DNA of 64,000 bases from an uncultured Bacilli bacterium (GCA_944372115.1 CALVYH010000005.1:11812-75811), one strand, 5' to 3'. Shown: positions 976-25,185, counted from the first letter of the stretch. Translations and numbers: made by a program. The notes: generated by a model not told the origin, from the letters alone.

Positions 976-2958
976 ATGAACATTTTATTTTTACTTATTT
1001 CATTAATTATTAGTGCTTTTTTCCTTTTTTTAGGTTTATTCTTTTTAAAAGTTAAATATGTTAAAAGTTTTGATGAAGATACTTTAATTTCATCAAATGA
1101 AAAGAATTATGCTTTATTTGATGTTGATAATAAATATAAAGAATATGTTAATTCTTATAAGATAATTAAAGAAGGTAATAATCGTTTTTTAGCATTAAAA
1201 TTAAAAGGTAATGTTAAATATATTAATTTTAATGTTGTATGTTATAAGAATGAAAAAGTATTAAAAATATTAAATATTAAAGATGTATTAAATAACTATA
1301 AAGAAGATTATATAGTTAAACTTCCTTTAAATGCTTCATCTTTTAAAATAGATATCATAGAAGTTAATGATATCTATTTTATAGAAAATGAAGATATTAA
1401 AAAGAGTGTTTATAAATATATTCTTTCTTCTTTATTTTTTAGTATAAGTGCTACATTAGCTTATTTTTTAATCTATTTAATTACACTTTCTTTTTCTCCT
1501 TCTTCTATATATGATTCATGGGATAAATTAATTGAGAGTGTATTTTATGTTCCTATTTTTTATATTTTAGGAGCAATATTATTTCTTTTAACATTTATTA
1601 TCTCTTTTTTAATTCTTTTCTTTTTAAATAAAGAAAAAAGATTTGCTTTTAAAGAAAACAAGAAAAAAGATGAAGAAGAAAGTAAAGAATTTAATATATA
1701 TAAATATTTAAAATTTAATGTTAAAACTAAAAAGGATAAAAAAGATAATAGTGAATATTTTATTATTAAATTAATTAAAAAAAGAGAGTTTATTAAAGGT
1801 GAAATTTTAATAAAAGCAATTGATATAAATAACGAACCTCTTTTATCTTTTCCTTATAAAATTGATAAACATTTTAAAAAGATTAACATTAAGAAAAATA
1901 AAAATATTAAAGAATTAAAGATTTCTTATAACACTCTTTATTTTAAAAAGTTTAGATATATTAATAACGAAGCAATTTATAATGAATATTTAAATAAAAA
2001 TGGTGTCAAATGTGAAACACTTCATATTAAAGGTGTTTTATATTCCATTCTTACTTTCGCGCTTATTTTTATTACCTCATTAGGAGCAAATTTTTATGCT
2101 TCTTATCAATTAAATATTTATAGAAATATCGAAAATTATTTAAATTATGAATTCATTAATGAAGAAAACGAAGAAGAAGGTATAAAAATTGTTGAATCAC
2201 CAATTAAATTTAATACTTTATATATTCCTAAAGAAATTGATGGATATAAAGTTGTTTCAATAGGAGAAGGTGCTTTTAAAAATAACGAATACATTAAAAA
2301 GGTTTATTTTTCTAATGAAATAGAAATTGAAAGTGAAGCCTTTTTAAATTGTTCTTCTTTAGAATATGTCGATTTATCTAAAGTTAACAACATTGGATTA
2401 TCTTCTTTTGAAAAAACTAGTTTAAAAGAAATTTATGTTGGCGAAAATTTAGATACAGTCAATTCGAAAGCATTTGCTGAAATTAAAACTTTAAAGAAAG
2501 TTACTTTAGATAATCCTGATTTAGCTCTTGGATTAAATGTTTTTAGAAACTCTGTTATAGACGGAGATTTAATTATTAATTACGAACCTATTGGTTTACA
2601 AAGAACCTCCTTTATAGGAATATCTTGCAATGAAGTTTATATTTATGATTATAGTAAGATTACTAAAGTAAATTATAATGTTTCATATTATTTAAAAAGA
2701 GACCATACTTATTTTTTAAGCGAATGTATCCATGATGATGTTTCTTTTATTGTTGATAAAAATGGAAAAATTATAAAAACAATGGATGTTGAAGTAAGTT
2801 CCACTTTTGAAGGAACTTGTATAGAAAAATCTTATACTGAATATTTATGTCATAGATGTGGAAATAAATATAAAGTCGAAGGTAAATTAAATTTCCAAAA
2901 TCATAACTTTGTAGATGGTTATTGTACTTGGTGTGGAAAAGCAGAAGATAGAAATTAA
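976..2958 (+). CDS. Polytopic membrane protein with a BspA-type leucine-rich repeat (LRR_5-like) ectodomain and a C-terminal CxxC...CxxC cysteine motif
   Basis: There are about 4 hydrophobic helices (aa 1-25, about 150-175, about 190-220, about 345-370). LRR_5-like repeats are visible (VVSIGEGAFKNNEYIKKVYFSNEIEIESEAFLNCSSLEYVDLS...IGLSSFEKTSLKEIYVG...VNSKAFAEIKTLKKVTL). The C-terminus reads TCIEKSYTEYLCHRCG...YCTWCGK. It is the first gene of a packed operon. Confidence 0.65.
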   Translation: MNILFLLISLIISAFFLFLGLFFLKVKYVKSFDEDTLISSNEKNYALFDVDNKYKEYVNSYKIIKEGNNRFLALKLKGNVKYINFNVVCYKNEKVLKILNIKDVLNNYKEDYIVKLPLNASSFKIDIIEVNDIYFIENEDIKKSVYKYILSSLFFSISATLAYFLIYLITLSFSPSSIYDSWDKLIESVFYVPIFYILGAILFLLTFIISFLILFFLNKEKRFAFKENKKKDEEESKEFNIYKYLKFNVKTKKDKKDNSEYFIIKLIKKREFIKGEILIKAIDINNEPLLSFPYKIDKHFKKINIKKNKNIKELKISYNTLYFKKFRYINNEAIYNEYLNKNGVKCETLHIKGVLYSILTFALIFITSLGANFYASYQLNIYRNIENYLNYEFINEENEEEGIKIVESPIKFNTLYIPKEIDGYKVVSIGEGAFKNNEYIKKVYFSNEIEIESEAFLNCSSLEYVDLSKVNNIGLSSFEKTSLKEIYVGENLDTVNSKAFAEIKTLKKVTLDNPDLALGLNVFRNSVIDGDLIINYEPIGLQRTSFIGISCNEVYIYDYSKITKVNYNVSYYLKRDHTYFLSECIHDDVSFIVDKNGKIIKTMDVEVSSTFEGTCIEKSYTEYLCHRCGNKYKVEGKLNFQNHNFVDGYCTWCGKAEDRN

Positions 2959-2971
2959 AGGAGCATTTATT

Positions 2972-4264
2972 ATGGTTTTAACTAGCACAGTGTCACAAAT
3001 TGTTCTATTAGTTGTTGCTACTATCGTTTTTTTGATATTAGCAGTTATTTCTTGTCTTATTCTTTATAAATATTTAAAAGAAAATAATACATTTATTATT
3101 AAAGGATCGAATAAAAAGAATAAAGAAATTTTAGATTTGAGTGAAGAAATCGGACGTGGAGAAGAAGCTGCTAATAATGATAGCGAAAGATTTTCTAAAC
3201 TTTTAATTTTAGATAGTAAAAAAAGAGCTCAAATTGAATATGATAATGTAGTTTCTTTAAAAACTTTTTCAGAAGATTTTAGAAATTTCTGTGCTTCAAA
3301 CTTAAAACTTTATTACACAATTGACGATATTCGCTCTTTTATTGCTAATTTAGCTACTTCAAAAATTATGATTCTTCAAGGTATGAGTGGTACTGGTAAA
3401 ACTTCTATCGCTTTAGCTTTTGAAAAATATATTAATAACGTTCTTGATCCAATTGCAATTCAACCAATGTGGAAAGAAAGAAGCGATTTAATCGGTTATT
3501 TTAATGAATTTACTAAGAAATTTAATGAAACACCTTTATTAGAAGAATTATATGACGCAACTTTTAACGATAAAATCTATATTATCGTTTTAGATGAAGT
3601 TAATATTGCTCGTGTTGAATATTATTTTGCTGAATTTTTATCTCTTTTAGAATATCCAAACATTGAACAAAGAACATTAGAAATTACTAATGATGTTTGG
3701 GATAGAGATCCTAGAAAATTACAAAAAGGGAGACTTCAAATCGGGGAGAATGTTTATTTTTTAGGAACAGCAAATAATGATGAATCTACATTTGCTATTT
3801 CTGATAAAGTTTATGATAGAGCGATGGTTTTAAATTTAGAGAAAAAAGCTGAAAGTTTTGAAGGAAATAAAGTAAATCGATGTCAAATTTCTAATACTCA
3901 ATTTTTAAAACTTGCTAATGAAGCTGAAGAATCGTTTAAAAAATCAAGTGATTATGATGAACTTCAAAACTGGATTAATAAAATTAATGAACTTATCGTC
4001 GAATCTTTTGGAATAAGTTTTGGTAATCGTATGAGCGGGCAAATATTAAGATATGTTCCAGTTTATGTTGCTTGTGGCGGAAGTAAAGAAGAAGCTTTTG
4101 ATGATTTCGTTGCAAAAAAGATTTTAAGAAAACTTGAAGGAAAGGATTTTTTAAAACTTTCAACTGCTGTAAAACCATTTATCGATAAACTTAATTTGGT
4201 TTTTGGGGTTGATTCAATGAAAAAATGTAAAGAATACGTTTCTAAATATAATATTGTTGGTTAG
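2972..4264 (+). CDS. Membrane-anchored McrB-like AAA+ (AAA_5 type) NTPase, paralog 1
   Basis: I place the start at ATG 2972, preceded by AAAGGAG at 2957-2963; the track ORF starts at 2915. There is one N-terminal TM helix (VSQIVLLVVATIVFLILAVISCLILY). Walker A is GMSGTGKT (3380-3403) and Walker B is IIVLDEVN. The segment LDEVNIARVEYYFAEFLSLLE resembles McrB DEINRAN..FGE..LLE, and FLGTANNDEST resembles McrB (I/L)GTMNTADRS. Confidence 0.7.
   Translation: MVLTSTVSQIVLLVVATIVFLILAVISCLILYKYLKENNTFIIKGSNKKNKEILDLSEEIGRGEEAANNDSERFSKLLILDSKKRAQIEYDNVVSLKTFSEDFRNFCASNLKLYYTIDDIRSFIANLATSKIMILQGMSGTGKTSIALAFEKYINNVLDPIAIQPMWKERSDLIGYFNEFTKKFNETPLLEELYDATFNDKIYIIVLDEVNIARVEYYFAEFLSLLEYPNIEQRTLEITNDVWDRDPRKLQKGRLQIGENVYFLGTANNDESTFAISDKVYDRAMVLNLEKKAESFEGNKVNRCQISNTQFLKLANEAEESFKKSSDYDELQNWINKINELIVESFGISFGNRMSGQILRYVPVYVACGGSKEEAFDDFVAKKILRKLEGKDFLKLSTAVKPFIDKLNLVFGVDSMKKCKEYVSKYNIVG
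3368..3405 (+). repeat. 38-nt stretch identical to 6264-6301 (Walker A region of the two McrB-like paralogs)
   Basis: atgattcttcaaggtatgagtggtactggtaaaacttc is present at both sites. A second identical 41-nt run (aatgtttattttttaggaacagcaaataatgatgaatctac) lies at 3749-3789 and 6645-6685. Confidence 0.9.
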
Positions 4265-4267
4265 TTT

Positions 4268-5788
4268 ATGAATAGAAGTGGTAGAAAGTATAATCAATAT
4301 AAAGGATTAAAACGATATTTAGATGTTGTTACAAAAAATCCAAAATTAGAACAACTTGGAGATTTAGTTAAAAATTCGCCATCTCTTTTTAATGAGATTA
4401 ATACTTTTGAAAACTCTATAAAAATTGAATCTGATTGGATTGAAAAAATCGAATTTTATCTTCCTTTTATTTCAAGCGCTATTTTAGAAGGAAGAAGATT
4501 TATTTTAAATACAGGCGAAACTGTTGATATTGAAAAAATTAAAAGAGTTTCTAAAGATTCTATCGTTGATTTAGCTAAACATTCAAATAACATTCGAAAA
4601 TTTAATGAAGTAAGTCAAGATGTTGAACCTAGAAAGCTTTTGATAGTTGAAAAAAATGATGATTTTGGATTGTACGAAAATAAATTTTTAGTTTATTTAC
4701 TTTTACTTTTAAAATCATTCGTTTCTATGCGTTTTGATAAAATCAAAGAAGCTCAATCAATATTAGAAATTAAAACAACCTTAAAAAATAACGTTACTAT
4801 TTTTAAAGATTCAATTAGTTATGATATTTCAATTGATGATATTAGACATACTGATTTAAAGGTCGAAGAAAACGATGTTAATAAAGATTTAATTAATAGA
4901 CTCAATGCAATTACTTCAACAATTGAACAATTTTTTAAAAGTGATTTAATTTCAATTGTTGCAAAACTTCCTTTAATTAGTGAACCAATTCAAAAAAATA
5001 ACGTCTTAAAAAATGATCCTAATTTTGTTAAATGTTATGAACTTTATGAATATTTAAAAAACTATAATAAAGATGGTTTTGAAATTGAAAAAAGTGAAAT
5101 TAAATTAGATAAATTGAGCGATTCATATATTAATTTCTTTAAATTTATTCCAACAATTTTAACTTTCCTTTCTTATTCTGAATCAAAAGATTTATTCCCA
5201 CTTTTAGAAGAAGAATATATAAATGAAAAAGAAGATATTAGAAAATTAAATCATGAAACATTAATTAATAAGATTTCTGAAATTTTTGCTAGTGAATCTT
5301 TAAATAAAGAAGAAATAACAAATATCATTCTTAAACTTGAAGATGAATTAAAGAATAAAGATGAATTATTAAATAAAACAAAAGAAGATGATTTGAATAA
5401 GTTAAATGAAGTAAAGAAAGATTTAAATAGAAAAATTGAAACATTAACTTATAACTATGAAGATTTAAATAATCGTTATGAAGAAGATACAAAACAATTA
5501 AATAATGAAGTTATAAAGTTAAAAGATGAAAAAGAAGCTTTAAAAAAAGAATATGAAGAAGAAATAAATAAACTTAAAGCAATAAATAGAGCACTTAATA
5601 TTCGTATTAATCCTGAATTTGAAAAAGAAAAGAACGATGAAGTTTATTTTAATGAACTAGAAAAGGATTTTGATGTTTTTACTAATTACTTCAAAGATAA
5701 ATGGAAAGAAGTTAAGAAAGTGATTAAAAAAGAGAAGAAAAAAGAAATTCGTGAATTATTAAAAAAGAAGGAGAAGTTAAATGGTTAA
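4268..5788 (+). CDS. Coiled-coil protein with a McrC/DUF2357-like N-terminal region and no recognisable nuclease domain
   Basis: It lies between the two McrB-like genes, 3 nt after one and overlapping the next by 8 nt. The motif EPRKLLIVEKNDDFGLYENKFLVYLLLLL resembles the (D/T)x(Y)ENRFLK signature of McrC/DUF2357 partners. The C-terminal 190 aa or so is a K/E/N/L heptad-like coiled coil (LEDELKNKDELLNKTKEDDLNKLNEVKKDLNRKIETL...). No PD-(D/E)xK-like block was seen by eye. Confidence 0.45.
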   Translation: MNRSGRKYNQYKGLKRYLDVVTKNPKLEQLGDLVKNSPSLFNEINTFENSIKIESDWIEKIEFYLPFISSAILEGRRFILNTGETVDIEKIKRVSKDSIVDLAKHSNNIRKFNEVSQDVEPRKLLIVEKNDDFGLYENKFLVYLLLLLKSFVSMRFDKIKEAQSILEIKTTLKNNVTIFKDSISYDISIDDIRHTDLKVEENDVNKDLINRLNAITSTIEQFFKSDLISIVAKLPLISEPIQKNNVLKNDPNFVKCYELYEYLKNYNKDGFEIEKSEIKLDKLSDSYINFFKFIPTILTFLSYSESKDLFPLLEEEYINEKEDIRKLNHETLINKISEIFASESLNKEEITNIILKLEDELKNKDELLNKTKEDDLNKLNEVKKDLNRKIETLTYNYEDLNNRYEEDTKQLNNEVIKLKDEKEALKKEYEEEINKLKAINRALNIRINPEFEKEKNDEVYFNELEKDFDVFTNYFKDKWKEVKKVIKKEKKKEIRELLKKKEKLNG

Positions 5789-7157
5789 TAGAAAATTAAT
5801 CGATCAAATTTGTGCTATATTGATGGTCGTTGATTTAATTCTTGGACTATTCTTTTTATCATTCCTTTTAGCATTTACTTTAAGCGATGGAGGAGGTTTT
5901 ATTTTAACTAATCCTTTAGTTTATATAGTAATTGTTATGCTTTTTATTATTCCTTCTTGTTATGTTGTTTATTATCTTTTTACTTTAAAAAGCGATGCTG
6001 AAGAAGAGTTTATTTTTAACAGAGAATCTTATTTGAAGGTTAAAAATTTAACTCATAAAGACAGTGAAGATAAAAATGCATACCGTTTTTCTAAACTTTA
6101 TGATTTAGATAATGAAAAAAGAGAAGAAATTGTTTTTGATAAAATTACTTCTTTAAGCACTTTTTGTAATGAATTTAGATATTATTGTGCTGAAAAGTTA
6201 AATTTATATTATGATATCGAAGACATTAGAGCGTTTATATCAAATTTAGGTGTTTCTAAACTTATGATTCTTCAAGGTATGAGTGGTACTGGTAAAACTT
6301 CAATCGCTTTAGCTTTTGAAAAATTTATTGGTAATGTTTTAGAACCAGTGGCTATTCAACCAATGTGGAAAGAAAGAAGTGATTTAGTTGGATATTTTAA
6401 TGAATTTACTAAGAAATTTAACGAAACTTTGCTTTTAGAAGAATTATATAAATCTAATTTCGACGATAAGATTTATATAATTATTTTAGACGAAGTTAAT
6501 ATTGCTAGAATTGAATATTATTTTGCTGAATTTCTTTCTCTTTTAGAATATCCAGATGAAGATAGAAGAAAACTTGAAATTACAAATGATGTTTGGATCA
6601 ATGACCCAAGAATGTTAAAAGAAGGCAAATTATTAATTAAAGATAATGTTTATTTTTTAGGAACAGCAAATAATGATGAATCTACCTTTGCTATTTCAGA
6701 TAAAGTTTATGACCGTTCAATGGTTTTAAATTTAAATAAAAAAGCCACACCATTTAAGGGAGAAAAAGTTAAAGAAAGAAAGATTTCTAACACTGATTTT
6801 AAAAATATTTGTGATGAAAAAATAAAAGAATTTACCGTAAGTGATGATTATAAAGTTGTAATGAAGTGGATTAATATTATTGATGAGTTATTAAATCAAA
6901 ATTTCTCAATTAATTTTGGTAATCGTATGTTAAATCAAATTTTAAAATATGTTCCATTATATGTTGAATGCGGAGGAAGTAAAGAAGAAGCTTTTGATGA
7001 TTTTGTTTCTAAAAAGATTTTAAGAAAATTAGAATCAAAAGATTTTTTAAGACTTGGACCTGCAATTAATAAATTTTTAAATGAATTAGATGAATATTAT
7101 GGTAAAGACTCAATGCCTTTATCTAGAGAATATTTGAAGAAATTTGTTCAATTTTAA
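5781..7157 (+). CDS. Membrane-anchored McrB-like AAA+ (AAA_5 type) NTPase, paralog 2
   Basis: There are two N-terminal TM helices (ICAILMVVDLILGLFFLSFLLAF and LVYIVIVMLFIIPSCYVVYYLF). Walker A is GMSGTGKT (6276-6299) and Walker B is IIILDEVN, followed by FLGTANNDEST. By eye, roughly two-thirds to three-quarters of residues match 2972-4264 over the ATPase region. Confidence 0.7.
   Translation: MVNRKLIDQICAILMVVDLILGLFFLSFLLAFTLSDGGGFILTNPLVYIVIVMLFIIPSCYVVYYLFTLKSDAEEEFIFNRESYLKVKNLTHKDSEDKNAYRFSKLYDLDNEKREEIVFDKITSLSTFCNEFRYYCAEKLNLYYDIEDIRAFISNLGVSKLMILQGMSGTGKTSIALAFEKFIGNVLEPVAIQPMWKERSDLVGYFNEFTKKFNETLLLEELYKSNFDDKIYIIILDEVNIARIEYYFAEFLSLLEYPDEDRRKLEITNDVWINDPRMLKEGKLLIKDNVYFLGTANNDESTFAISDKVYDRSMVLNLNKKATPFKGEKVKERKISNTDFKNICDEKIKEFTVSDDYKVVMKWINIIDELLNQNFSINFGNRMLNQILKYVPLYVECGGSKEEAFDDFVSKKILRKLESKDFLRLGPAINKFLNELDEYYGKDSMPLSREYLKKFVQF
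6264..6301 (+). repeat. Partner copy of the 38-nt identical stretch at 3368-3405
   Basis: Direct comparison of the two regions. Confidence 0.9.
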
Positions 7158-7178
7158 TTTTTTAGGAGGAAAAGAAAG

Positions 7179-9323
7179 ATGAAACCAAAAACAAAAATAC
7201 TAGTCTTAATAGTTACTGTTATTGCTTTTTGTAGTATTGTCGTAGCTACTCTTTTTGGTTTAAATACTCTTGGTGTTTTAAGACTTTTTGAAACTCCTAT
7301 TTCTATTAAAATTGAAGACTATACTACTACATATAATGCTGAAAAAGTTGAAGCGAATTTTCCTTATCAAATAACAAGTGGCGGTTTAATTTCTGGTGAT
7401 TCCATAGAAGTTACTACAAAAGAAGAAATAATAAATGCAGGAACCTATCAAAATGTTTTTGAAGTAAAAATTATTGATAGAAACGGACAAAATGTTTCAT
7501 CTTCATATGATATAAATATTGACATGGGTGAAATTGAAGTTTCGCCTATTGAAATAACATTACAAAGTGCAACCGCAGTTTTTCCAAATGATGGTGAAGT
7601 TCATAGTGATTTTGGTGTTTCTATTATTAAAGGTAGCCTTATAAATAACGATTATTTTGACTTTAGTAATTTTAAAGAATTTACTGTTAAAGGTTATCAT
7701 GAAAATAAATTTACTGCTAAAGTTTTTACAGAAGAAAATGAAGATGTAACATTTAATTATGATATAACTTATCAATATGGTTATATCATAATTACAGATC
7801 TTTCAGAAAGTGGCGAGAGTGGACCCTCTAGCGAAATTAATTATCCAGAAAAGGTTACTTCCGAAAGTGATATTCAGGGAGCTCCGGGAGCATTGAAAGA
7901 AGGAGATGGTGGTGAATATAAAGCTGGCGGAGAAAAAACTTTTGAAACTATTTTTAATTATACCCCTACAGTCGCTGGATCATCGTTTTTTAAAATCTCA
8001 AGCGATGGTGATTATACAAAAAAAGGTTGGAAAACTGCGCCAAAATATAAGTCAAAATATGGCGTAAATCCTCAAGAATTTATTACTGATTTATTAAGAA
8101 ATCATAAGGAAAGATATTTTTCTGGTTCATTAGAATATGTAAGTATTACTCAAAGAGACATGGATATTGTGCCTTGGCACCCTATTCTTAAATATAAACA
8201 AGTAACAGATACTTATTCAATTTCATCTGATTTAAAAAGTAAAACAATAAATACAGAAGGCTATATGTTTGATTATATAAAAGATTATAGTCTTTTAGAA
8301 AATACAACTTTTTCAAGTGAAGATTATGTTAACGAAGAAAAAGAATATAGAAAATTTGTTTATGATAATTATTTACAAATACCTGATTCTACTAAAACAT
8401 CGATTAATAATTATATAAATAAATATAATTTAAATACTGGGAATCTTTTATCAACTATAAATAAAATTATTGCCCATTTTAAGACGTACTTTTTATATGA
8501 TTATGAGGGATTTAAAGATTACTTAGAGGATGATGTCCTTGTCTCTTTTTTAGAAAAATATAAAGTAGGAGATTGTTCTAGATTTTCCGGTTCTGGGGTA
8601 TTAATGTTAAGAGCCATGGGTTATCCTGCTAGAAGAGTTGGCGGATATGGAGTTCCGGGTTATGCGGTAGGTAAAACTTATTCAGTCAATCCTTGGGCTG
8701 GCCATGCTATAGCTGAAGTTTATATTGATGGGAAAGGTTGGGTAGGCATTGAATTTACTGTTGCCGATTTAGCTCCTACTTGCGTCTATCCTCCTTCATG
8801 GGATGTTAGCGATAATGGAGAAGCTTATGATTTAATTCTTTCAACCGATGATATTGTTGAAGAATATAATGGCTCACCTGTTTCTAGTAATCAAAAATAT
8901 CTTTTAACTGGAGAGTTAAAAGATGGTGATTCTTTAGTAATTAACAATAATAACACTCTTTATAATTGTGGATATATTGATAATATTCCTAGTTATTTGA
9001 TTGTTGATTCTAATTTTAATGATGTTACGAGTAAATATAAGATTAAAGAAGATTTTGGTAAAATTGTAATGAATCAAAAAGATTTAACATTGGAAACAGA
9101 TAATGCGACTTTTTCTTATGATGGAAATGAGCACAATCCTACTTATAAGATAAGTGGGTTAGTAAATGGCGATAAAGTTGATAGCGTTGTAATTTATCCT
9201 GCAAAAGAGTTAGGAACTCATCTTTCAGTTGTAATAATAAATTCTATTAAAAATGCATCAGGAGAAGATGTTACAGCAAATTATAATATTACATATGTTT
9301 TTGGACATATAAGGGTGGAATAA
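7179..9323 (+). CDS. Membrane-anchored transglutaminase-like (Cys-His-Glu) protein flanked by MBG (YGX-type)-like repeats
   Basis: RBS AGGAGG lies upstream. The N-terminal signal anchor is ILVLIVTVIAFCSIVVATLFGL. The transglutaminase core is GDCSRFSGSGVLMLRAMGYPARRVGGYG (Cys466, 8574-8576), GHAIAEVYIDGKGW (His509, 8703-8705) and GIEFT (Glu525, 8751-8753). Repeats follow the pattern Y(D/N)G..GD..aGtYqN..NYdItY.yG.I.I. Confidence 0.75.
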   Translation: MKPKTKILVLIVTVIAFCSIVVATLFGLNTLGVLRLFETPISIKIEDYTTTYNAEKVEANFPYQITSGGLISGDSIEVTTKEEIINAGTYQNVFEVKIIDRNGQNVSSSYDINIDMGEIEVSPIEITLQSATAVFPNDGEVHSDFGVSIIKGSLINNDYFDFSNFKEFTVKGYHENKFTAKVFTEENEDVTFNYDITYQYGYIIITDLSESGESGPSSEINYPEKVTSESDIQGAPGALKEGDGGEYKAGGEKTFETIFNYTPTVAGSSFFKISSDGDYTKKGWKTAPKYKSKYGVNPQEFITDLLRNHKERYFSGSLEYVSITQRDMDIVPWHPILKYKQVTDTYSISSDLKSKTINTEGYMFDYIKDYSLLENTTFSSEDYVNEEKEYRKFVYDNYLQIPDSTKTSINNYINKYNLNTGNLLSTINKIIAHFKTYFLYDYEGFKDYLEDDVLVSFLEKYKVGDCSRFSGSGVLMLRAMGYPARRVGGYGVPGYAVGKTYSVNPWAGHAIAEVYIDGKGWVGIEFTVADLAPTCVYPPSWDVSDNGEAYDLILSTDDIVEEYNGSPVSSNQKYLLTGELKDGDSLVINNNNTLYNCGYIDNIPSYLIVDSNFNDVTSKYKIKEDFGKIVMNQKDLTLETDNATFSYDGNEHNPTYKISGLVNGDKVDSVVIYPAKELGTHLSVVIINSIKNASGEDVTANYNITYVFGHIRVE

Positions 9324-9326
9324 AAT

Positions 9327-12300
9327 ATGCTAACCGAAGTATATAAAAATAAAATTAAAAGATATTTAGCTTTTTATAAATTCATTTATAGATTTAGAAT
9401 CTTACTTATAATTTTAGCGTGTGTAATTGTAGGCGTTACATCTACATTATTATCATTAAAAGGTTTAGTAATCGATACATTGAAAATTAGCGATGTTCAA
9501 TATGGTGAAAAATTGACTTATTCATCAACAGGTCTTTTTGATAATTATATTCATTATGAATTTAAAAAAGATGGTTCTAATGAATGGAGTCAAAATGTTC
9601 CTAAATTAGTCGGAAAATATCAAATTCGTGGTGTTTCAAAAAATATTTTTGGAGGATTTTATTATGGAAAGCCTCAAAATTTTGAAATTAATCCAAAAAT
9701 TTGTGATGTAACTGTTTCTGAAAAAGTATCAACATATGGCGATATACCAACTATGAATTTTAATCTTTTGAGTGGAGATGAGATTGTTGATTTAAATTTT
9801 ACTTATAATAGTTATGGCGATAATTATGCAAACGTAAGTTTTGATAAAGATAGTGTTGTTGTAGTTAATAAAAGTGGTGAAGACGTTTCTTATTGCTACG
9901 ATTTTAATTTTGAAAATTCTTATGATTTAACATTAAAACCTAGAAATATTGTAGTTAAAGCAAGCGGTATTTATGAATACGACGGTGAAACTCATAATGT
10001 CGAAACTGTTGATTTAAAAAATGGAACTTTAGCTAATGGCGATAAAATTAGTTATGAAAATAGTGAAGGATTTGTTGATGGTGGAGTTCATGCTTCAAGG
10101 CCAAAAATAACAATTAAAGATAGACAAAATCGAGATGTTACTAAATTTTATGATATAGATTACAGTCACGATTCTACGATTGTAATAAATCCTAGAAAAA
10201 TCACTATAAAAACAGGTGATTTTTCTAAAACATATGATGGCAAGATTTATGAAGGAATTGTTTCTTTTTCTATAACTGAAGGAAGTTTGATTAATGGTGA
10301 TAGAATTGAATTAACTTATCCTAAATATATCAACGCAGGAAATTACCAAAATAAACCAACTTATACAATTTTTGATAAAGATGGTAAAAATAAGAGTTCA
10401 AATTATGCAGTTACTTTTGATTGTGGAAAATATATTATTAACCCAATTAAACTTACTTTGAATTTTAAGTATTTCGATAAAGTATATTCTGGGTGGATTG
10501 GGGATAATATGAATTTTTCTTATACAGGGAATCTTTTAGAAGGTCATGAAATTAGATTTTATGAAACATCTTCAGAAGCTATTAATACGTTGCACGTTGG
10601 AAAGCACGATAATTACTTAGGTGCTAAAGTATTTGATGCATCTGGAAAAGACGTGAGCATTAATTATGAAATAACTATTAAATCAAATTCGTACGAGGTT
10701 ACAAAAAGATCGATTACAATTAAAGCTCAAAGTTATACTTTTACTTATGATGGTACAAAAAAATATTGCCCTTTCTTTGATGTTGAAGGCGAATTAGGAG
10801 AACCAGATGAAATTTTGATTACGAAACTTACGACTGCCAGAAACGTAGGCGTATATGATAATATTTTAAAATTTGAAATAAAAAATAACTTATATGAAAC
10901 AGATGTAACAAATGATTATGACATTACTTTTATACCTGGAAAAATTACTATTTTAGAGGAAGATAAATCGCCTATAGATTTAGGTTTACCTGATAGTAAT
11001 ATTATGGGAGATGTTTTTCTAGGTCCTAATATGGGTAGTCTTGTCATGAAGTATACCGTTAAAAGTGGAAGTGCTGGTCAATTTTTAAGATCTATTAGTA
11101 CTGGTGTTTATGATAAAGACAGTTTTTTAATGGGGCCAAATTACACGCCTAGATATGGAGTAAATGTTATGGAATTTATTCCAGAATTATTAAAAAACAA
11201 GATGAAACCATTTGAAGGTGTATTAGATTACTATAGATTTGATAATAGAGGATTTGATTATGTTCCATATTATTCAGTGCTTTCAAAAACACAGAAATCA
11301 GATAATTATGTAATTGATTCAGATTTAAAAACTAAAAAAATCAATATAAAAGGTTACAATTTTGACTATGTAAGAGACCACGCCTTAATTGATAACGCAA
11401 CTTTTACGAATCAAGATTTTAAAAACGAAGAACGTGTATACTCAGATTTTGTTAAACAAAATTATCGTTCTTTACCTACTAATTTATTTAACATACTTGC
11501 CGACTATATTAGAGAAAATAATTTGGAAGGAAGAAATTTATTAGATTCTTTAAATAGAATTATAAAATTCTTTTCTGAAACTGGCGGATTTATTTATGAT
11601 ATGGGCGATTATGGAAATAGTACATCTGAAGAACCTATTATAAATTTCTTAACAAAGACAAGAACAGGAGTATGTAATATGTTTGCATCCTCTGGAGCAG
11701 CTTTATTAAGAGTTATGGGTTATCCAACAAGAGTTGTTTCTGGATATGGATTCTCAAGTGGTTCTAATGTAGGCGGTGTTTATAATGTGACTGGACCTGG
11801 ACATGCTTTATGTGAAGTATATGTTGATGGGAAAGGTTGGGTAACAGTTGAATTTACTGTTGCTCCTGTTGCAGAAGACTTATATTTGCCTCCTAAAGAT
11901 TCAGCTGGTGGTGATCCATTAGAAGACTCTTCGCTAGATCAAGATAATATAAATTATGATGAGATTCAGACTGGAGGTGCTGAAATAGATCCTAATGGTC
12001 AACAAGATGAAGAAGTAGATAATCCTGGACAAAGCGGAGATTCTGGAGAAAGCGATGATCCAACTGGCGATCCTCAACCAGGAGAAACTGAAGGAGAAGA
12101 AAAAGAGGATTACGATTTATACATATACGGAGATAGCGGAAGTTTTGAATATGATGGCAAGCCACATTCGGTCGATACGTATAATTTAGAAGGCGAGTTA
12201 AAAGATGGACATACGCTAGAAATATCTGGTGTTCCTTCTATAACAAAGGTTGGAATTATCAATAATAATTTTTCATATAATATTAAAGATGAATTTGGCA

Positions 12301-12617
12301 ATATTGTAACTGATCAATATAAGATTTATTTCTCTAAAGGTACAGTTTCAGTAACTAAAAGGATCTTAAAGATAAAAACAACTACAACTTCAACATCATT
12401 GTCTAGTTTAAGTTCTTTCTCTAATATTATTGAATCAATTGATGGATTAGCTCCGGGGGATAAAATTGTTGATAGAATAGATTTAATTTTAACCTCAACA
12501 AGTAAAGGAACATATCAAAACGTAGTAATAGTTTCTAAAATAGTTAATGAAAAAGGAGAGGATGTTACTTCTTGTTATGCTATAAACTATGATTATGGAA
12601 CAATAACATTAAATTAA
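9327..12617 (+). CDS. Large membrane-anchored transglutaminase-like protein with many MBG-like repeats and an acidic spacer (paralog of 7179-9323)
   Basis: The TM helix is ILLIILACVIVGVTSTLLSL. About 7 N-terminal and 2 C-terminal MBG-like repeats are visible (YEYDGETH...GD...NAGNYQN...NYAVTFDCGKYIINP). The core is GVCNMFASSGAALLRVMGYPTRVVSGYG (Cys783, 11673-11675), GHALCEVYVDGKGW (His826, 11802-11804) and VEFT (Glu842, 11850-11852). A D/E/G/P-rich spacer lies at about 11890-12135. Confidence 0.75.
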   Translation: MLTEVYKNKIKRYLAFYKFIYRFRILLIILACVIVGVTSTLLSLKGLVIDTLKISDVQYGEKLTYSSTGLFDNYIHYEFKKDGSNEWSQNVPKLVGKYQIRGVSKNIFGGFYYGKPQNFEINPKICDVTVSEKVSTYGDIPTMNFNLLSGDEIVDLNFTYNSYGDNYANVSFDKDSVVVVNKSGEDVSYCYDFNFENSYDLTLKPRNIVVKASGIYEYDGETHNVETVDLKNGTLANGDKISYENSEGFVDGGVHASRPKITIKDRQNRDVTKFYDIDYSHDSTIVINPRKITIKTGDFSKTYDGKIYEGIVSFSITEGSLINGDRIELTYPKYINAGNYQNKPTYTIFDKDGKNKSSNYAVTFDCGKYIINPIKLTLNFKYFDKVYSGWIGDNMNFSYTGNLLEGHEIRFYETSSEAINTLHVGKHDNYLGAKVFDASGKDVSINYEITIKSNSYEVTKRSITIKAQSYTFTYDGTKKYCPFFDVEGELGEPDEILITKLTTARNVGVYDNILKFEIKNNLYETDVTNDYDITFIPGKITILEEDKSPIDLGLPDSNIMGDVFLGPNMGSLVMKYTVKSGSAGQFLRSISTGVYDKDSFLMGPNYTPRYGVNVMEFIPELLKNKMKPFEGVLDYYRFDNRGFDYVPYYSVLSKTQKSDNYVIDSDLKTKKINIKGYNFDYVRDHALIDNATFTNQDFKNEERVYSDFVKQNYRSLPTNLFNILADYIRENNLEGRNLLDSLNRIIKFFSETGGFIYDMGDYGNSTSEEPIINFLTKTRTGVCNMFASSGAALLRVMGYPTRVVSGYGFSSGSNVGGVYNVTGPGHALCEVYVDGKGWVTVEFTVAPVAEDLYLPPKDSAGGDPLEDSSLDQDNINYDEIQTGGAEIDPNGQQDEEVDNPGQSGDSGESDDPTGDPQPGETEGEEKEDYDLYIYGDSGSFEYDGKPHSVDTYNLEGELKDGHTLEISGVPSITKVGIINNNFSYNIKDEFGNIVTDQYKIYFSKGTVSVTKRILKIKTTTTSTSLSSLSSFSNIIESIDGLAPGDKIVDRIDLILTSTSKGTYQNVVIVSKIVNEKGEDVTSCYAINYDYGTITLN

Positions 12618-12835: not shown

Positions 12836-13444
12836 ATGGAAAAAGTTAGTTCCAACGAAAAAAAGACTTTTCGTGAATCTTCAAAGTCTTTTTTTAAAGA
12901 TTTCTTTAGTGTAAAAATGATTACACTAAATGCATTTGTTGCTGCATTATATGCTGTATTAACTATTGTTTGTTATCCACTTTCTTATAGTTATATGCAA
13001 CTTAGATTTTCAGAATTATTAAATCTTTTAGTATTTTTTAATCCTTCATATACTTTAGGATTAACAATTGGTTGTTTATTATCAAATTTAATGTCTTCAG
13101 CAGGAATATTTGATATTACTTTAGGTACATTAGCAACATTTATTTCTTGCTTAATTATGATTTTATTTTCTAAATTAACTAAGAATTTATTTTTTAGTGG
13201 GTTAATTCCTTGTATTGTTAATGCTATTACAGTTCCTTTTATTATTTATTTAGCTTCAAGTGGAACAAGTGATGCCTTTAATTTAGAAGCTCCAATTTTC
13301 TTTATTATGGGAGGATGGACTTTTTTAGGTGAATTTATTGCAATAAATATTATTGGTTATAGTGTTTTTATGCTCTTGGCTAAAAAATATAAAGGATTTC
13401 AACAATTATTTAACGCAAATTATAATTTAGATTTTAAATGGTAA
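12836..13444 (+). CDS. queT: Queuosine precursor transporter QueT (ECF S-component-like)
   Basis: It is a 202-aa, roughly 5-6 TM protein with a QueT-like N-terminus (MITLNAFVAALYAVLTIVCYPLSYSYMQLRFSELLNLL). It sits directly upstream of tgt-queA-queH and downstream of the preQ1-like leader. Confidence 0.8.
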   Translation: MEKVSSNEKKTFRESSKSFFKDFFSVKMITLNAFVAALYAVLTIVCYPLSYSYMQLRFSELLNLLVFFNPSYTLGLTIGCLLSNLMSSAGIFDITLGTLATFISCLIMILFSKLTKNLFFSGLIPCIVNAITVPFIIYLASSGTSDAFNLEAPIFFIMGGWTFLGEFIAINIIGYSVFMLLAKKYKGFQQLFNANYNLDFKW

Positions 13445-13479
13445 AAATTTACCGATTAAGAAAATGGATAAATTTAATT

Positions 13480-13504
13480 GCTACCAAAATAATGGTAGCT
13501 TTTA
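13480..13504 (+). terminator. Terminator after queT
   Basis: A 7-bp stem gctacca / tggtagc with a 6-nt loop is followed by tttt. Confidence 0.55.
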
Positions 13505-13604
13505 AATTGCTTTTAAATAAAACATATTTAACTTTAAATGAAAGTATTATTAAATAAAAATCTAAAATAAATAAAATAATTACATTTAAAGCGAATATTT
13601 TTTT

Positions 13605-13657
13605 AAGCTCGTAGCATTCTTGAATATAAATATTCAGGGTGGGTTGAGCTTTTTTTA
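13605..13657 (+). terminator. Second hairpin plus T-run upstream of tgt (terminator or attenuator-like)
   Basis: The outer stem is aagctc / gagctt and the inner stem is tgaatat / atattca, followed by ttttttt. Its function is unknown. Confidence 0.3.
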
Positions 13658-13693
13658 TAAAATAAGCCCATCTTATTTTATATATATAATTAA

Positions 13694-14890
<1,197 letters not shown>

Positions 14891-14893
14891 TAT

Positions 14894-15919
14894 ATGGATA
14901 TCGAACTTTTTAATTACGATTTACCAGAAGAATTAATTGCGCAATCTCCTTCAAAAGAAAGAGATCATTGTAGGTTAATGGTTATTGATAAAACTAAAAA
15001 AACTTATGGAGATAAGCATTTTTATGACATTATAAATTATTTAAAACCTGGCGATGTTTTAGTTAGAAATAACACAAAAGTTATTCCAGCTAGAATTTTT
15101 GGAGTTAAAGAAGTTACTGGTGCTCATGTTGAAGTTTTACTTTTAAAAGATTTAGGTAATGATACTTATGAATGTTTATTAGGCAATGCTAAAGCTATAA
15201 AAGTAGGAAGCGTTATCGATTTTAATAACAAAATGAAAGCAACATGTTTAGAAGTGAAAGATGAAGGAATTAGAATTTTAAAATTTGAATATCAAGGAAT
15301 TTTCTTTGAAATATTAGATGAAATTGGAAATATGCCTCTTCCTCCTTATATTCATGAAAAAATTAAAGATAAGAATGACTATCAAACAGTTTATGCTAAA
15401 GTTGAAGGAAGTGCAGCAGCTCCTACAGCAGGTTTTCATTTTACAAATGAACTTTTTAATAAAATTAAAGAAATGGGAATCGAAGTTTATGATGTTACTT
15501 TAAATATTGGTTTAGGAACTTTTAGACCAGTAAAGGTGAAAGATACAAATGATCATCATATGCATAGCGAATATTATCAAATTAGTGAAAATGTTGCTTC
15601 TTCTTTAAATAAAGCAAAAAAAGAAGGAAGAAGAATTATTGCTATTGGTACAACTGTTGTAAGAACTTTAGAATCTAATTTTAATAAATTTAATGAATTT
15701 AAAGCAGATAAAGACAATACTTCTATTTTTATTTCACCAGGCTATCAATATAAAGCAATTGATTGTTTAATCACTAATTTTCATCTTCCTAAATCCACTT
15801 TAATTATGTTAGTTAGTGCTTTTATGGGAAGAGAATTTACTTTAGAGTGTTATAAACATGCAGTAGATGAAAAATATCGTTTCTTCTCGTTTGGAGATTC
15901 GATGTTTATTCATTCTTAA
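14894..15919 (+). CDS. queA: S-adenosylmethionine:tRNA ribosyltransferase-isomerase
   Basis: LFNYDLPEELIAQSP, MPLPPYI, AAPTAGFHFT and GTTVVRTLES are present. The product is 341 aa. Confidence 0.97.
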   Translation: MDIELFNYDLPEELIAQSPSKERDHCRLMVIDKTKKTYGDKHFYDIINYLKPGDVLVRNNTKVIPARIFGVKEVTGAHVEVLLLKDLGNDTYECLLGNAKAIKVGSVIDFNNKMKATCLEVKDEGIRILKFEYQGIFFEILDEIGNMPLPPYIHEKIKDKNDYQTVYAKVEGSAAAPTAGFHFTNELFNKIKEMGIEVYDVTLNIGLGTFRPVKVKDTNDHHMHSEYYQISENVASSLNKAKKEGRRIIAIGTTVVRTLESNFNKFNEFKADKDNTSIFISPGYQYKAIDCLITNFHLPKSTLIMLVSAFMGREFTLECYKHAVDEKYRFFSFGDSMFIHS

Positions 15920-15939
15920 AATAAGTACTTTTAAAATAT

Positions 15940-17568
15940 ATGGATAAAGAAATTAATAATTATTATTTAGAATTTGTAAAAGAATATAAAGAGATTAGAA
16001 AAAAAGAAGAAGGAAAACCAAAATTACTTCTTCATGTTTGCTGTGGACCATGTAGTGCATATCCACTTGTTTTTTTACAAGATTTATTTGATATTACAAT
16101 TCTTTATTCAAATTCAAATATTTATCCAAAAGAAGAATATGATAAAAGACTTTATAATTTAAAAAGATATGTTAACGAAATAAATTTAAAGTTTAATAAA
16201 CATATTTTAGTGATTGAAGATAATTATGATTATGATTCTTTTAAAGAAGATTTACTTCCTTTTAAAAATCAAAAAGAAGGATTAAATAGATGTAAAATTT
16301 GTATCGCTAAAAGAATGAAGCGTTTATTTATAGTTGCAAAAGAAAGAAATTTTAAATATGTTACAACAGTAATGTCTATTTCTAGAAATAAAGATGCTGT
16401 TTATATTAATAAAATCGGTAAAGCGATTGAAAATAATTTATATAAAAATGAAATTGAATTTATTTATACTGATTTTAAAAAGAATGATGGTCAAGAAATC
16501 GGTATAAAAATTGCTAAAAAATATAATTTATATCGACAAGATTATTGTGGATGTGAATTTTCTCTTCCTTTAGATAAAAGGGAAGAGAAAATTATAGATA
16601 TCTCAATAGTTTTATTAATAAAAGATAACGATAAAGAAGAATATTTAAAAAAGTGTTTAGATAGTTTAATTATTCAAGAAGGCGATATAGCTTATGAGAT
16701 ATTTGTGCTTATTAATGATAAAGAAAAAGAAAAACTTGAAATAATTAATGAATATAAAAATAAATATAACGACTTATTTAATGTTCATATTTTATCTTCT
16801 TCATTATTTTTAGATATATCAAATATTAAAAATTACGCTTTAAAAAATGTTAAAGGAAGATATATTGCTTTTGTTGAATCAACTAGTTATGTCTCTAAAG
16901 ATTTTTTAAGTGTTAATTATAAAGTTGCTTTAAAAAATAACGCCGATGTAGTTAATTTTTTATATAAAAATATAAAAGAAAATAAAAAAGTTAGTTCATT
17001 TAATCCTCGTTTTTATTTAACTAAATTTTATAATGAAGGCAATAAAAAAAGAATATTGAAAGCTTTATTTAATGATATTTTTGTTAGAGGATATATTTTT
17101 AATAAGTTCTTTAAAAAAGATTTTTTAAAGAACCAAAATATCTTTTTTATGGGTGAAAGTTCATGTATGGAAGATCTTTTCTTTTCATATCTAACTTTTT
17201 TATATTCTAAAAAGGTAGTTTTTATTAATAAAACTTTATATTTTAGAAATAAAAAAGCTGAATTAGAAAAGTTTGATATAAATAAATTCTCTCAAAAGTT
17301 AATTAATTCGTGGTTTTTAATGCGCTATGTTTCAATTAAAGAAGGTTTTAAAAATATTGGAAATTGTTCTTTTTTACCTAAAACAATAATGCTTTCTTTT
17401 AGTGGTTTAAAATTTTATAAAAATTTAGATATTTCTTATTTCTCATATTTAAAAAAGAATTCAAAACAGTTAAAAAAATTAGTTAAAAATGAATATAAAT
17501 ATGAAGGTGAAGAGTGGGAGAAGGCTCTTTATATTTATCTTGAAAAAAGCAAAGACAATCACTATTAA
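15940..17568 (+). CDS. queH: Epoxyqueuosine reductase QueH (DUF208) fused to a C-terminal GT2-like glycosyltransferase domain
   Basis: The N-terminal 210 aa or so carries QueH motifs: HVCCGPCS, NRCKICIAKR, TVMSISRNKD and YCGCEFS. From about nt 16590 a GT-A/GT2-like domain follows: ISIVLLIKDNDKEEYLKKCLDSLIIQ...GRYIAFVESTSYVSKDF, where ES(T) replaces the usual D(S)D. The frame is continuous across the junction. Confidence 0.8.
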   Translation: MDKEINNYYLEFVKEYKEIRKKEEGKPKLLLHVCCGPCSAYPLVFLQDLFDITILYSNSNIYPKEEYDKRLYNLKRYVNEINLKFNKHILVIEDNYDYDSFKEDLLPFKNQKEGLNRCKICIAKRMKRLFIVAKERNFKYVTTVMSISRNKDAVYINKIGKAIENNLYKNEIEFIYTDFKKNDGQEIGIKIAKKYNLYRQDYCGCEFSLPLDKREEKIIDISIVLLIKDNDKEEYLKKCLDSLIIQEGDIAYEIFVLINDKEKEKLEIINEYKNKYNDLFNVHILSSSLFLDISNIKNYALKNVKGRYIAFVESTSYVSKDFLSVNYKVALKNNADVVNFLYKNIKENKKVSSFNPRFYLTKFYNEGNKKRILKALFNDIFVRGYIFNKFFKKDFLKNQNIFFMGESSCMEDLFFSYLTFLYSKKVVFINKTLYFRNKKAELEKFDINKFSQKLINSWFLMRYVSIKEGFKNIGNCSFLPKTIMLSFSGLKFYKNLDISYFSYLKKNSKQLKKLVKNEYKYEGEEWEKALYIYLEKSKDNHY

Positions 17569-17787: not shown

Positions 17788-18099
17788 ATGGCAAAAGTAA
17801 AAAAGATTAGAGTTCGTTTACAAGCTTATGATCACAAGTTACTTGATATGGCTAGTGGCAAGATTGTAAATGCAATAACTAAAACAGGTGCTAGTGTAGT
17901 CGGACCTATTCCACTTCCAACGGAAAAACAAGTATACACAATCTTAAGAGCTGTTCATAAGTATAAAGATTCTCGTGAACAATTCGAAATTAGAACACAC
18001 AAAAGAATTATCGATATCACCAATCCTAACAGTGATACAATTGTCGCTTTAAGAAAATTAGATCTTCCAAGTGGTGTTGATATCGACATCAAGTTATAG
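17788..18099 (+). CDS. rpsJ: 30S ribosomal protein S10
   Basis: [20 protein letters not shown]... The start is ATG 17788 after GAAAGGAG; the track ORF starts at GTG 17767. Confidence 0.97.
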
Positions 18100-18113
18100 G
18101 AGGAAATGATAGT

Positions 18114-18806: not shown

Positions 18807-18829
18807 TTTAAAGAAAGGAGAAAATTAAC

Positions 18830-19453: not shown

Positions 19454-19454
19454 T

Positions 19455-19790: not shown

Positions 19791-19815
19791 TCTAACTTAT
19801 ATATAGGAGAAAATT

Positions 19816-20649: not shown

Positions 20650-20667
20650 TAAAGGAGGAAATTAGAG

Positions 20668-20973: not shown

Positions 20974-20995
20974 TATAGGATGGAGATAGAAAATT

Positions 20996-21538: not shown

Positions 21539-21557
21539 TAGGAAGGAGGAATAAACG

Positions 21558-22250: not shown

Positions 22251-22252
22251 CT

Positions 22253-22666: not shown

Positions 22667-22673
22667 TTAACTT

Positions 22674-22871: not shown

Positions 22872-22888
22872 GAGGTATAAAAAGAATT

Positions 22889-23218: not shown

Positions 23219-23220
23219 TT

Positions 23221-23598: not shown

Positions 23599-23618
23599 GG
23601 AATAAAGGAGAATAACCT

Positions 23619-23927: not shown

Positions 23928-23941
23928 GGAGGTAAGTGATT

Positions 23942-24550: not shown

Positions 24551-24558
24551 GAGGATGT

Positions 24559-25168: not shown

Positions 25169-25185
25169 TAGGAGGTTAATTCTAG

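Follow-up and report, generated by a model that had tools for sequence, protein, structure and literature searches.

A predicted membrane-anchored, nuclease-less McrBC-derived NTPase module encoded with transglutaminase-fold surface proteins in an uncultured Bacilli bacterium

A 64,000-nucleotide (nt) stretch of DNA from an uncultured Bacilli bacterium (GCA_944372115.1 CALVYH010000005.1:11812-75811), referred to here as the window, carries a six-gene unit at positions 976-12617 of the + strand which is well supported as an operon. Its genes code in turn for a leucine-rich-repeat (LRR) membrane protein, a McrB-like nucleoside triphosphatase (NTPase; B1), a protein related to McrC (C), a second McrB-like NTPase (B2) and two membrane proteins with a transglutaminase (TG) fold (TG1 and TG2). 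McrBC is the textbook modification-dependent restriction enzyme. The core of the present module is well supported by its sequence as a McrBC-derived NTPase of the NxD clade which appears to have lost every nucleic-acid-related part, and a restriction-enzyme motor seems here to be re-used for a cell-envelope job. The reading that we hold to be modestly probable is that of a membrane-tethered, McrBC-derived NTPase switch that is coupled to surface enzymes and has no role in restriction. The evidence from sequence analysis consists of the homology of the B proteins to McrB and of C to the DUF2357 family, the absence of a nuclease, the predicted membrane anchors, the conservation of the operon block and the concerted evolution of the motor. 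An initial annotation of this DNA had confined the unit to 2972-7157, namely two McrB-like genes around a partner gene, but the unit reaches further and includes the LRR membrane protein and the two TG-fold surface proteins. The operon and its features are as follows, with positions counted from the first letter of the window.

976-2958, + strand: LRR membrane protein, first gene of the operon; 660 amino acids (aa), Pfam LRR_5 E-value 2e-15

2972-4264, + strand: B1, McrB-like NxD-clade AAA+ NTPase; 430 aa, AAA_5 E-value 3.6e-8, one N-terminal transmembrane (TM) helix, predicted N-out/C-in

2999-3067, + strand: predicted TM helix of B1, about aa 10-32; Kyte-Doolittle peak 3.24, Lys-rich stretch after the helix

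3380-3403, + strand: Walker A of B1, GMSGTGKT, aa 137-144; invariant in the alignment, 111 of 120 homologs

3581-3604, + strand: Walker B of B1, IIVLDEVN, aa 204-211; D208 and E209 invariant, aligns with the McrB Walker B

3773-3784, + strand: signature N-N-D-E of B1, aa 268-271; sensor-1 Asn and NxD variant, then Glu; N268, N269 and D270 invariant

4268-5788, + strand: C, coiled-coil protein with a McrC N-terminal domain (DUF2357); 506 aa, without TM segment and without nuclease domain

4421-5167, + strand: DUF2357-like N-terminal domain of C, about aa 52-300; invariant Y136-E137-N138, predicted long beta-hairpin at aa 165-194

5195-5608, + strand: coiled-coil region of C, helices aa 310-341 and 347-447, from the AlphaFold2 model and a PDB profile search

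5781-7157, + strand: B2, McrB-like NxD-clade AAA+ NTPase; 458 aa, AAA_5 E-value 4.7e-7, McrB NCBIfam E-value 2e-5, TM hairpin, predicted N-in/C-in

5808-5984, + strand: predicted TM hairpin of B2, about aa 10-34 and 46-68 with loop SDGGGFILTNP; Kyte-Doolittle peaks 2.71 and 2.50

7179-9323, + strand: TG1 membrane protein with predicted extracellular region; 714 aa, Transglut_core E-value 1.8e-14, weak MBG_2 match, N-terminal anchor

9327-12617, + strand: TG2 membrane protein with predicted extracellular region, last gene of the operon; 1096 aa, Transglut_core E-value 2.4e-13, N-terminal anchor

The six genes are separated in turn by gaps of 13, 3, -8, 21 and 3 nt, with C starting 3 nt past the B1 stop codon and its end overlapping the start of B2 by 8 nt, and a 218-nt gap separates the end of TG2 from the following gene, queT. 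A scan for promoters and terminators returned fewer matches than shuffles did in the 25% GC DNA of the window and was uninformative. Both B open reading frames (ORFs) are present as the initial annotation had described them. The start codon of B1 is the ATG at 2972, which is borne out by a ribosome-binding site (AAAGGAG) 8 nt upstream, while an alternative longer ORF from 2915 would overlap the upstream gene.

The relationship of B1 and B2 to McrB is supported by several searches. Both proteins match Pfam AAA_5 above its gathering score, McrB is their top NCBIfam match, and the only significant PDB matches, in single-sequence and family-profile searches alike, are McrB chains. When the B family profile was aligned with Escherichia coli McrB using hhalign, a probability of 96.9% (E-value 1.7e-10) was obtained with Walker A, Walker B and GTxN in register. 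With McrB as the sole significant PDB relative and this alignment in hand, the McrB-like character first proposed for the two ATPases holds, and the motifs on which the proposal was built (GMSGTGKT, I(V/I)LDEVN, DEVNIAR(V/I)EYYFAEFLSLLEYP and FLGTANNDEST) are all found in both translations. No matches of the MoxR, RavA, CbbQ or dynein type were obtained for B1 or B2 in the Pfam, NCBIfam and PDB searches. A MoxR, RavA or dynein identity is ruled out, as these databases give nothing beyond the generic AAA_5, and the membership of a non-McrB family that would have undone the first proposal is therefore not what was found. The two proteins share 60% identity with each other (E-value 2e-176), and their genes 76% DNA identity over 985 nt.

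The sequence GTANNDES of the B proteins aligns with GLMNTADRS of McrB and is one residue shorter between the Asn and the Asp. A branch of the McrB-like GTPases in which NxxD is shortened to NxD, usually with a Glu or a second Asp following, has been described by Bell et al. (PMC11090510). NNDES or NNDDS is present in 118 of 120 close homologs and NxD[DE] in all the nearest outgroups, which places B1 and B2 firmly, as judged by sequence, in the NxD clade of McrB-like GTPases. The block FLGTANNDEST, read at first as NxxD-like, is thus present in both proteins, but its NNDE is the NxD(+E/D) deletion variant (PMC11090510) and not an equivalent of NxxD. B1 and B2 are probably GTPases, though the sequence itself gives no reading of nucleotide preference.

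The B family is large, with at least 8000 clusters at 90% identity. A HMMER scan of 1.84 billion representatives (50% identity) gave 720 matches at E≤1e-30 and 5994 at E≤1e-10. Among the best 149 of these matches four architectures were seen, with NxD[DE] in nearly all. The first, that of the present family, consists of one or two TM helices followed by the ATPase; in the second (about 500-530 aa) the ATPase is preceded by a hydrophobic hairpin and an FtsB-like leucine zipper; the third joins a four-TM domain to the ATPase; and the fourth, which is CoCoNuT-like, has a soluble coiled-coil N-terminal part of 400-500 aa ahead of the ATPase. The four-TM NxD McrB-like ATPases (P0192, P0194-P0197, P0200, P0208 and others) are 550-700 aa in total and represent a third kind of membrane-embedded McrB relative. 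It should also be mentioned that the 90%-identity cluster of B1 lists members of 660 aa. These are not fusions of B, a possibility which was ruled out, but the upstream LRR protein; this database quirk could mislead automated annotation, and it may be connected with the overlap between the ORF from 2915 and the end of the LRR gene.

In place of the N-terminal specificity domain of McrB, both B proteins have a membrane anchor followed by a linker of 40-60 aa, as the initial annotation had suggested; no Pfam domain and no nucleic-acid-binding domain was found in this region. TM segments were called by Kyte-Doolittle hydropathy with a 19-residue window and a threshold of 1.6, and topology was assigned with the positive-inside rule. 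One N-terminal segment is predicted in B1 and two in B2, as first proposed, and all three peaks lie far above the threshold. The helix of B1 has no charged residue before it and five Lys after it, while in B2 the N-terminus is short (MVNRK), the loop between the helices has 10 residues and the C-terminal flank is charged. From these flanking charges both ATPase domains are predicted to be cytoplasmic. By the same hydropathy analysis four TM segments are predicted in the LRR protein, a single N-terminal one in each of TG1 and TG2, and none in C.

The anchors are conserved features, with at least one N-terminal TM segment present in 116 of 120 close B homologs. Moreover, the single-TM state occupies the position upstream of C in 41 of 44 loci and the two-TM state the position downstream of C in 43 of 44, with the joint pattern found in 41. 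Two of the related loci, L065 (7760-11107) and L061 (8912-11074), have an upstream B with a signal or TM segment, 300-700 aa that are predicted to be extracellular, a second TM segment and an intact ATPase, giving it a receptor-like look, and this fits the N-out topology predicted for B1.

The ATPase modules of the two B copies within a genome have an average identity of 82%, compared with about 57% between genomes, and roughly half of the B copies have the neighbouring copy as their nearest relative. At the DNA level, a stretch of some 1.1 kb from just past the anchor and linker to the stop codon is 98-100% identical in about 24 of 43 loci. Examples of near-identical B pairs are the following, with others in L013, L034, L049, L059, L060 and L073.

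L002: 6624-7925 versus 10001-11413

L022: 5861-7270 versus 9596-11083

In the lineage of the window and in Lachnospiraceae the cores have diverged, with 66% aa identity in the window and 56-72% across those loci. A motor that is 98-100% identical behind distinct 5′ anchors points to continuing gene conversion, with selection keeping the anchors apart. The earlier idea that the two paralogs form two different rings finds no support and may be mistaken, given that about half of the related loci have ATPase modules with 98-100% DNA identity. A single type of ring, or rings of mixed composition, held by two types of anchor would fit at least as well, and the pattern suggests that a single motor shown on two anchors is what counts. 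An origin of the identical repeats as an assembly artefact was ruled out, as collapse cannot yield two identical copies with different 5′ ends. Near-identical B repeats do account for the frequent contig breaks within B genes, and loop collapse in assembly for the few loci from which C and one of the B genes are missing (e.g. L024, L030, L076).

The middle gene product C had been put forward as an McrC-like partner. It matches the Pfam family DUF2357, the N-terminal domain of McrC, with an E-value of 7.8e-5 and 22.5 bits against a gathering cut-off of 23.3. In a family alignment of 36 orthologs from related loci, DUF2357 was matched independently by 19 members (best 1e-7) and a nuclease Pfam domain by none. 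A B relative of 33% identity on a Rhodoferax plasmid adjoins an annotated DUF2357 gene, and the C profile aligned with the product of that gene by hhalign at 96.8% (E-value 2.4e-10, 204 columns), the alignment spanning the invariant motif D-Y-x-x-Y-E-N-R-x-x-x-x-L-L. The alignment of the C profile with a Lactococcus plasmid protein annotated as 'nuclease domain-containing protein', encoded beside an NxD ATPase, was not significant.

An AlphaFold2 model of C, built from a 30-sequence alignment, has a mean confidence score (pLDDT) of 85 for the full length and 87 for the N-terminal domain alone. It shows an alpha/beta N-terminal domain (aa 1-306) with a long beta-hairpin at 165-194, and after residue 306 it has helices only, namely 310-341, 347-447 (100 residues, pLDDT of about 90) and a conserved region at 458-505. 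A PDB profile search with the C-terminal half returned coiled-coil proteins only, and the conserved C-terminal helix is amphipathic and basic or aromatic. From sequence and model together, C is a McrC N-terminal domain (DUF2357) joined to a coiled coil, without a nuclease. The partner is thus McrC-like in its N-terminal domain, as the 19 Pfam matches and the hhalign result indicate, but it is not a full McrC, having a coiled coil in the place of the nuclease. No nuclease domain was found in the Pfam, NCBIfam and PADLOC scans of the six operon proteins, and because the operon holds no nuclease, DNA scanning by the module is unlikely, in agreement with what had been expected at first.

TG1 and TG2 each have a single N-terminal TM segment after a Lys-rich start, and because of these preceding Lys-rich N-termini their ectodomains are placed outside the cell. 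The catalytic residues of Transglut_core are well conserved among 56 cores from the family (Cys in 50, His in 53 and Glu/Asp in 55), which suggests that the TG proteins are probably active enzymes of the papain fold; TG1 and TG2 are therefore probably active extracellular enzymes. In the family, the TG ectodomains carry adhesin-type repeats (MBG_2, YDG, AgI_II_C2), and the downstream surface proteins of related loci reach lengths of 1500-2600 aa. The LRR protein has a BspA-type LRR_5 region, four predicted TM segments and a Cys-rich C-terminus, the end of which is zinc-ribbon-like (CHRCG...CTWCG). Of the 21 loci with enough upstream sequence, 13 have an LRR gene ahead of B1, among them the distant loci L084, L085 and L086. 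In many non-Bacilli loci there is an additional small membrane protein which, by iterated search, matches the N-terminal part of the window LRR protein; in L026, L029, L084 and L085 this part corresponds to a separate small protein of about 230-270 aa ahead of a much larger LRR gene.

Related loci were surveyed by a pattern scan over one genome per GTDB species, in which at least 591 species-level genomes were found to have a B relative. The loci listed (80 of the at least 591) are all from Bacillota and come almost entirely from metagenome-assembled genomes (MAGs) of gut or rumen. Carriers among them include uncultured Bacilli such as Candidatus Onthovivens, Anaeroplasmataceae, Acholeplasmatales and Haloplasmataceae as well as Christensenellaceae, Lachnospiraceae, Oscillospiraceae and the cultured Pumilibacter muris. 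The presence of the system in wall-less lineages argues against a role specific to peptidoglycan. Gene order was scored by searching the ORFs of each locus with the window proteins, and was checked using the gene calls of the database with Pfam labels. The order B-C-B-TG-TG was found in almost all of the 80-odd loci, from Bacilli, Clostridia, Anaeroplasmataceae, Acholeplasmatales and Haloplasmataceae, and C is flanked on both sides by a B gene in 45 of the 48 loci with room for both. In terms of Pfam labels, the order LRR_5, AAA_5, C, AAA_5, Transglut_core and a second large protein is shared by close and distant relatives, in which the other neighbours are all different; where its gene is complete, the second large protein downstream also carries Transglut_core.

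Many non-Bacilli loci also possess a third B-like gene upstream of B1, coding for about 1100 aa, of which the window has none. It was located in the following loci.

L002: 2975-6631

L046: 6239-9607

L019: 2663-5809

L021: 3205-6498

L084: 6540-9977

L085: 6335-9970

The N-terminal part of this protein has Glyco_hydro_3_C and Fn3-like domains and is predicted to be cytoplasmic, as no signal or TM segment precedes it. A TM hairpin follows at about aa 680-740, and then a C-terminal B-like domain without Walker A, Walker B and NxD. The third B-like protein is probably an inactive subunit.

Downstream of the operon lie queT, tgt, queA and queH, and further on a ribosomal-protein operon, secY and rpoA. 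Neighbours such as these indicate a position on the core chromosome and a setting that is not defence-like. Relatives on plasmids were found at no more than 37% identity, and 50,697 phage records gave two weak matches only.

With E. coli McrBC (PDB 6HZ4, 6UT6) the module shares the AAA+ core and an adjacent partner gene of the McrC-type DUF2357 family. It differs from it in having TM anchors instead of the DNA-binding N-terminal domain, no PD-(D/E)xK nuclease, NxD instead of NxxD and two B paralogs. Like the CoCoNuT systems (CnuB/CnuC; PMC11090510), it has the NxD(+E/D) signature, coiled coils and a homolog of McrC, which in those systems too is often without an active nuclease. Long NxD ATPases fused to coiled coils are 38-42% identical to B1, and the gene for one of these, on a plasmid of Rhodoferax, precedes that of a DUF2357 protein which can be aligned with C. 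However, the CoCoNuT B proteins are soluble, with coiled-coil (and CSD/YTH) N-terminal parts of 400-500 aa, and nucleases, of the HEPN type or others, are always part of these systems and helicases often are; the present module has none of them.

The nearest relatives of the module are found elsewhere. A type of system called CoCoPALM has been named, though not studied, by Bell et al., eLife 2024 (PMC11090510). By their description it combines an NxD GTPase, to which an FtsB-like TM and coiled-coil part is fused, with a coiled-coil-bearing McrC homolog, and it is associated with proteins of the signal-peptidase family. No later paper on CoCoPALM was found in the literature and no CoCoPALM entries were found in the available part of the supplement to that article (PMC11090510). 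By the description in the paper and not by accession, we infer that the loci L091 and L093 are candidate CoCoPALM systems. They have one B gene, a C homolog of 623-668 aa, which in L091 aligns with the C family by hhalign at 99.7% (E-value 8e-26), and small neighbours with weak Peptidase_S26/S24 matches, and no transglutaminase gene. The likeness to the present system lies in an NxD NTPase with an N-terminal membrane anchor, a DUF2357 and coiled-coil partner with no recognisable nuclease, and a non-DNA context, and with about 39-45% identity to B1 the candidate CoCoPALM ATPases are the nearest outgroup. Unlike these loci with their one B, the present system has two B genes flanking C, and three in many lineages, as well as two TG-fold surface proteins in nearly all loci and often an LRR protein. 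The FtsB-like leucine zipper of P0170, P0175 and P0188 is absent here, the linker of B1 from the TM helix to the conserved RFS motif being about 40 aa. The window operon gave no Pfam match to DivIC/FtsB. Even with the cut-off relaxed to E≤0.1, no Peptidase_S24/S26 similarity was seen, either for its proteins or for the small proteins encoded upstream in distant loci. As far as sequence goes, the present system is the nearest relative of the candidate CoCoPALM loci, and yet it is distinct in architecture. A membrane-anchored McrB, as the initial annotation proposed, is thus present in B1 and B2, but it is less unprecedented than was thought, the CoCoPALM branch having been mentioned earlier (PMC11090510).

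A likeness of another kind is seen with clusters of MoxR, DUF58 and transglutaminase genes. TgpA-type operons are of this same kind. In the PFNA cluster of Bifidobacterium, likewise from gut bacteria, an AAA+ ring ATPase is found with an adaptor, a membrane TG-like protein and a large surface protein (PMC8430577). The MoxR clusters differ in having a soluble MoxR ATPase and a DUF58/vWA adaptor, so that the analogy is one of architecture and the motors are non-homologous; no AAA_3, DUF58 or vWA Pfam match was found in the window operon, and the membrane transglutaminase is the only component in common.

The way in which a membrane-tethered switch of this kind might work can be outlined from the known enzyme. 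In McrC, the DUF2357 domain inserts into the McrB hexamer and turns on hydrolysis, and a ring with a plug-in activator is expected here by homology with McrBC. B1 and B2 would form hexameric rings below the membrane, and mixed rings are possible because gene conversion keeps the ATPase modules identical in many species. The N-terminal domain of C would plug the ring and stimulate NTP hydrolysis, as in McrBC, while its coiled coil would dimerise and pair two rings, standing in for the bridge that is formed by the McrC nuclease dimer. The nucleotide cycle may then be relayed via the B anchors to the N-terminal TM helices of TG1, TG2 and the LRR protein, and this coupling would control the assembly, positioning or activity of these three proteins on the cell surface. 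TG1 and TG2 would act in this scheme as papain-like Cys-His-Glu/Asp enzymes on Ig-like repeat stalks. In function such a module would resemble those of the FtsEX or MoxR-DUF58-transglutaminase type and not a restriction enzyme. A more specific form of the proposal, which we put forward tentatively, is transmembrane energy coupling by a machine of a kind not recognised before, in which hydrolysis of NTP in the cytoplasm by an exapted, nuclease-less McrBC motor would drive or gate extracellular papain-fold enzymes and adhesin-like proteins, two anchors would serve two surface partners while gene conversion keeps the motor the same, and the whole would belong to the core envelope equipment of many gut Firmicutes, wall-less ones included.

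A number of points weigh against the interpretation as a switch. The C profile gave no alignment with E. coli McrC by hhalign; either this protein is too distant from C or it is of another McrC N-domain type. Foldseek searches of the PDB with models of C, both full-length and residues 1-310, returned nothing at E≤0.001; with the full model, 6UT6_G and 6HZ4_M appear at E 0.4-1.0 with a TM-score of at most 0.22, and both are outside the top 50 for the N-terminal domain. As neither approach gave a significant match, the plug-in-ring mechanism depends solely on the DUF2357 homology. Contact of the B anchors with the TM helices of the TG or LRR proteins is conjectural, and conservation of a neighbourhood speaks for functional linkage and not for mechanism. 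The related loci are nearly all from MAGs. The ATPase part of PDC-M26A, a PADLOC candidate-defence system, is matched by B1 with an E-value of 3.6e-44 and by B2 with 1.2e-36. Lastly, no member of the NxD clade of McrB has been biochemically characterised, and the CoCoNuT relatives of the module are predicted defence systems (PMC11090510).

One alternative is anti-phage or anti-invader defence, in which the LRR and TG proteins at the surface would detect phage adsorption or damage to the envelope and pass a signal across the membrane to the NTPase, or the NTPase would arm the surface enzymes, making the system a membrane-bound cousin of CoCoNuT and Type IV restriction. LRR and protease-like domains are indeed found in immune sensors. 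Defence is the known or predicted role of McrBC and its NxD relatives (PMC11090510), and the PADLOC match is strong, but that match is confined to the ATPase region of PDC-M26A (about 311-433 of the 724 profile positions), and no convincing match to other PDC-M26 components or PADLOC models was found for C and the other operon proteins. The operon contains no nuclease, HEPN, toxin or other recognisable effector according to the Pfam and PADLOC scans, and the block is kept across distant classes and is not patchy, has housekeeping neighbours and has no close plasmid or phage copy, for which reasons defence is considered unlikely. A dedicated export or assembly chaperone, the rings and C serving to insert, fold or polymerise the large TG and LRR proteins into a fibre or coat as a one-time act of biogenesis, is also unlikely. 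It would suit the size of the downstream proteins (1500-2600 aa) with their adhesin-type YDG, MBG and AgI_II_C2 domains, the pairing of the B/C module in L091 and L093 with signal-peptidase-like proteins, read as pilus assembly factors (PMC11090510), and the view of transglutaminase-linked MoxR-type AAA+ proteins as maturation chaperones (PMC8430577). Against it, the operon has no secretion-channel component, and the N-terminal anchors of the TG and LRR proteins are ordinary and compatible with insertion by Sec or YidC. Furthermore, McrC fills the McrB pore in the established structures, and to our knowledge the ring is not known to thread substrates.

It may also be asked whether the surface genes belong to the system at all, since B-C-B could be a self-contained membrane NTPase, e.g. 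for membrane remodelling or division, beside which the LRR and TG genes are merely located. CoCoPALM-type B relatives do carry FtsB-like TM and coiled-coil parts, and C does have a conserved amphipathic, basic C-terminal helix. However, a TG gene begins no more than 21 nt past B2 in the window and follows B2 in nearly every locus despite the differing neighbours, and a linkage with TG that persists across classes with otherwise differing neighbours is not expected of unrelated genes, which makes this last explanation very improbable.

If the interpretation as a membrane-tethered switch is true, the system would be a clear case of a restriction/defence motor recruited to an envelope function, and this from the core chromosome. 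What is new here is the arrangement of two B genes around C together with TG and LRR surface genes, while the McrBC-derived NxD clade and the mention of CoCoPALM were already known; no paper describing a McrB/DUF2357/transglutaminase cluster was found in the literature. The finding of an identical motor with two conserved anchors directly predicts how the complex is built, and the system would give a first experimental handle on the NxD clade. The groups that carry it abound in animal guts, and very little is known of their surfaces.

A few other features of the window may be mentioned. The queuosine set directly 3′ of the operon (12836-17568) consists of queT, tgt, queA and a QueH-GT2 gene (15940-17568), in which a QueH domain is fused to a family-2 glycosyltransferase domain, an unusual fusion. 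The window gene is named queT on the strength of its counterpart in locus L001, which Pfam calls QueT. The region 18000-32200 has a GC content of 0.32-0.35 compared with about 0.25 elsewhere and a strong positive AT skew; it holds rplB, secY and rpoA, and the sizes of its ORFs fit a ribosomal-protein superoperon. Nearly every 2-kb bin of the window shows a positive GC skew, and the genes lie mostly on the + strand.

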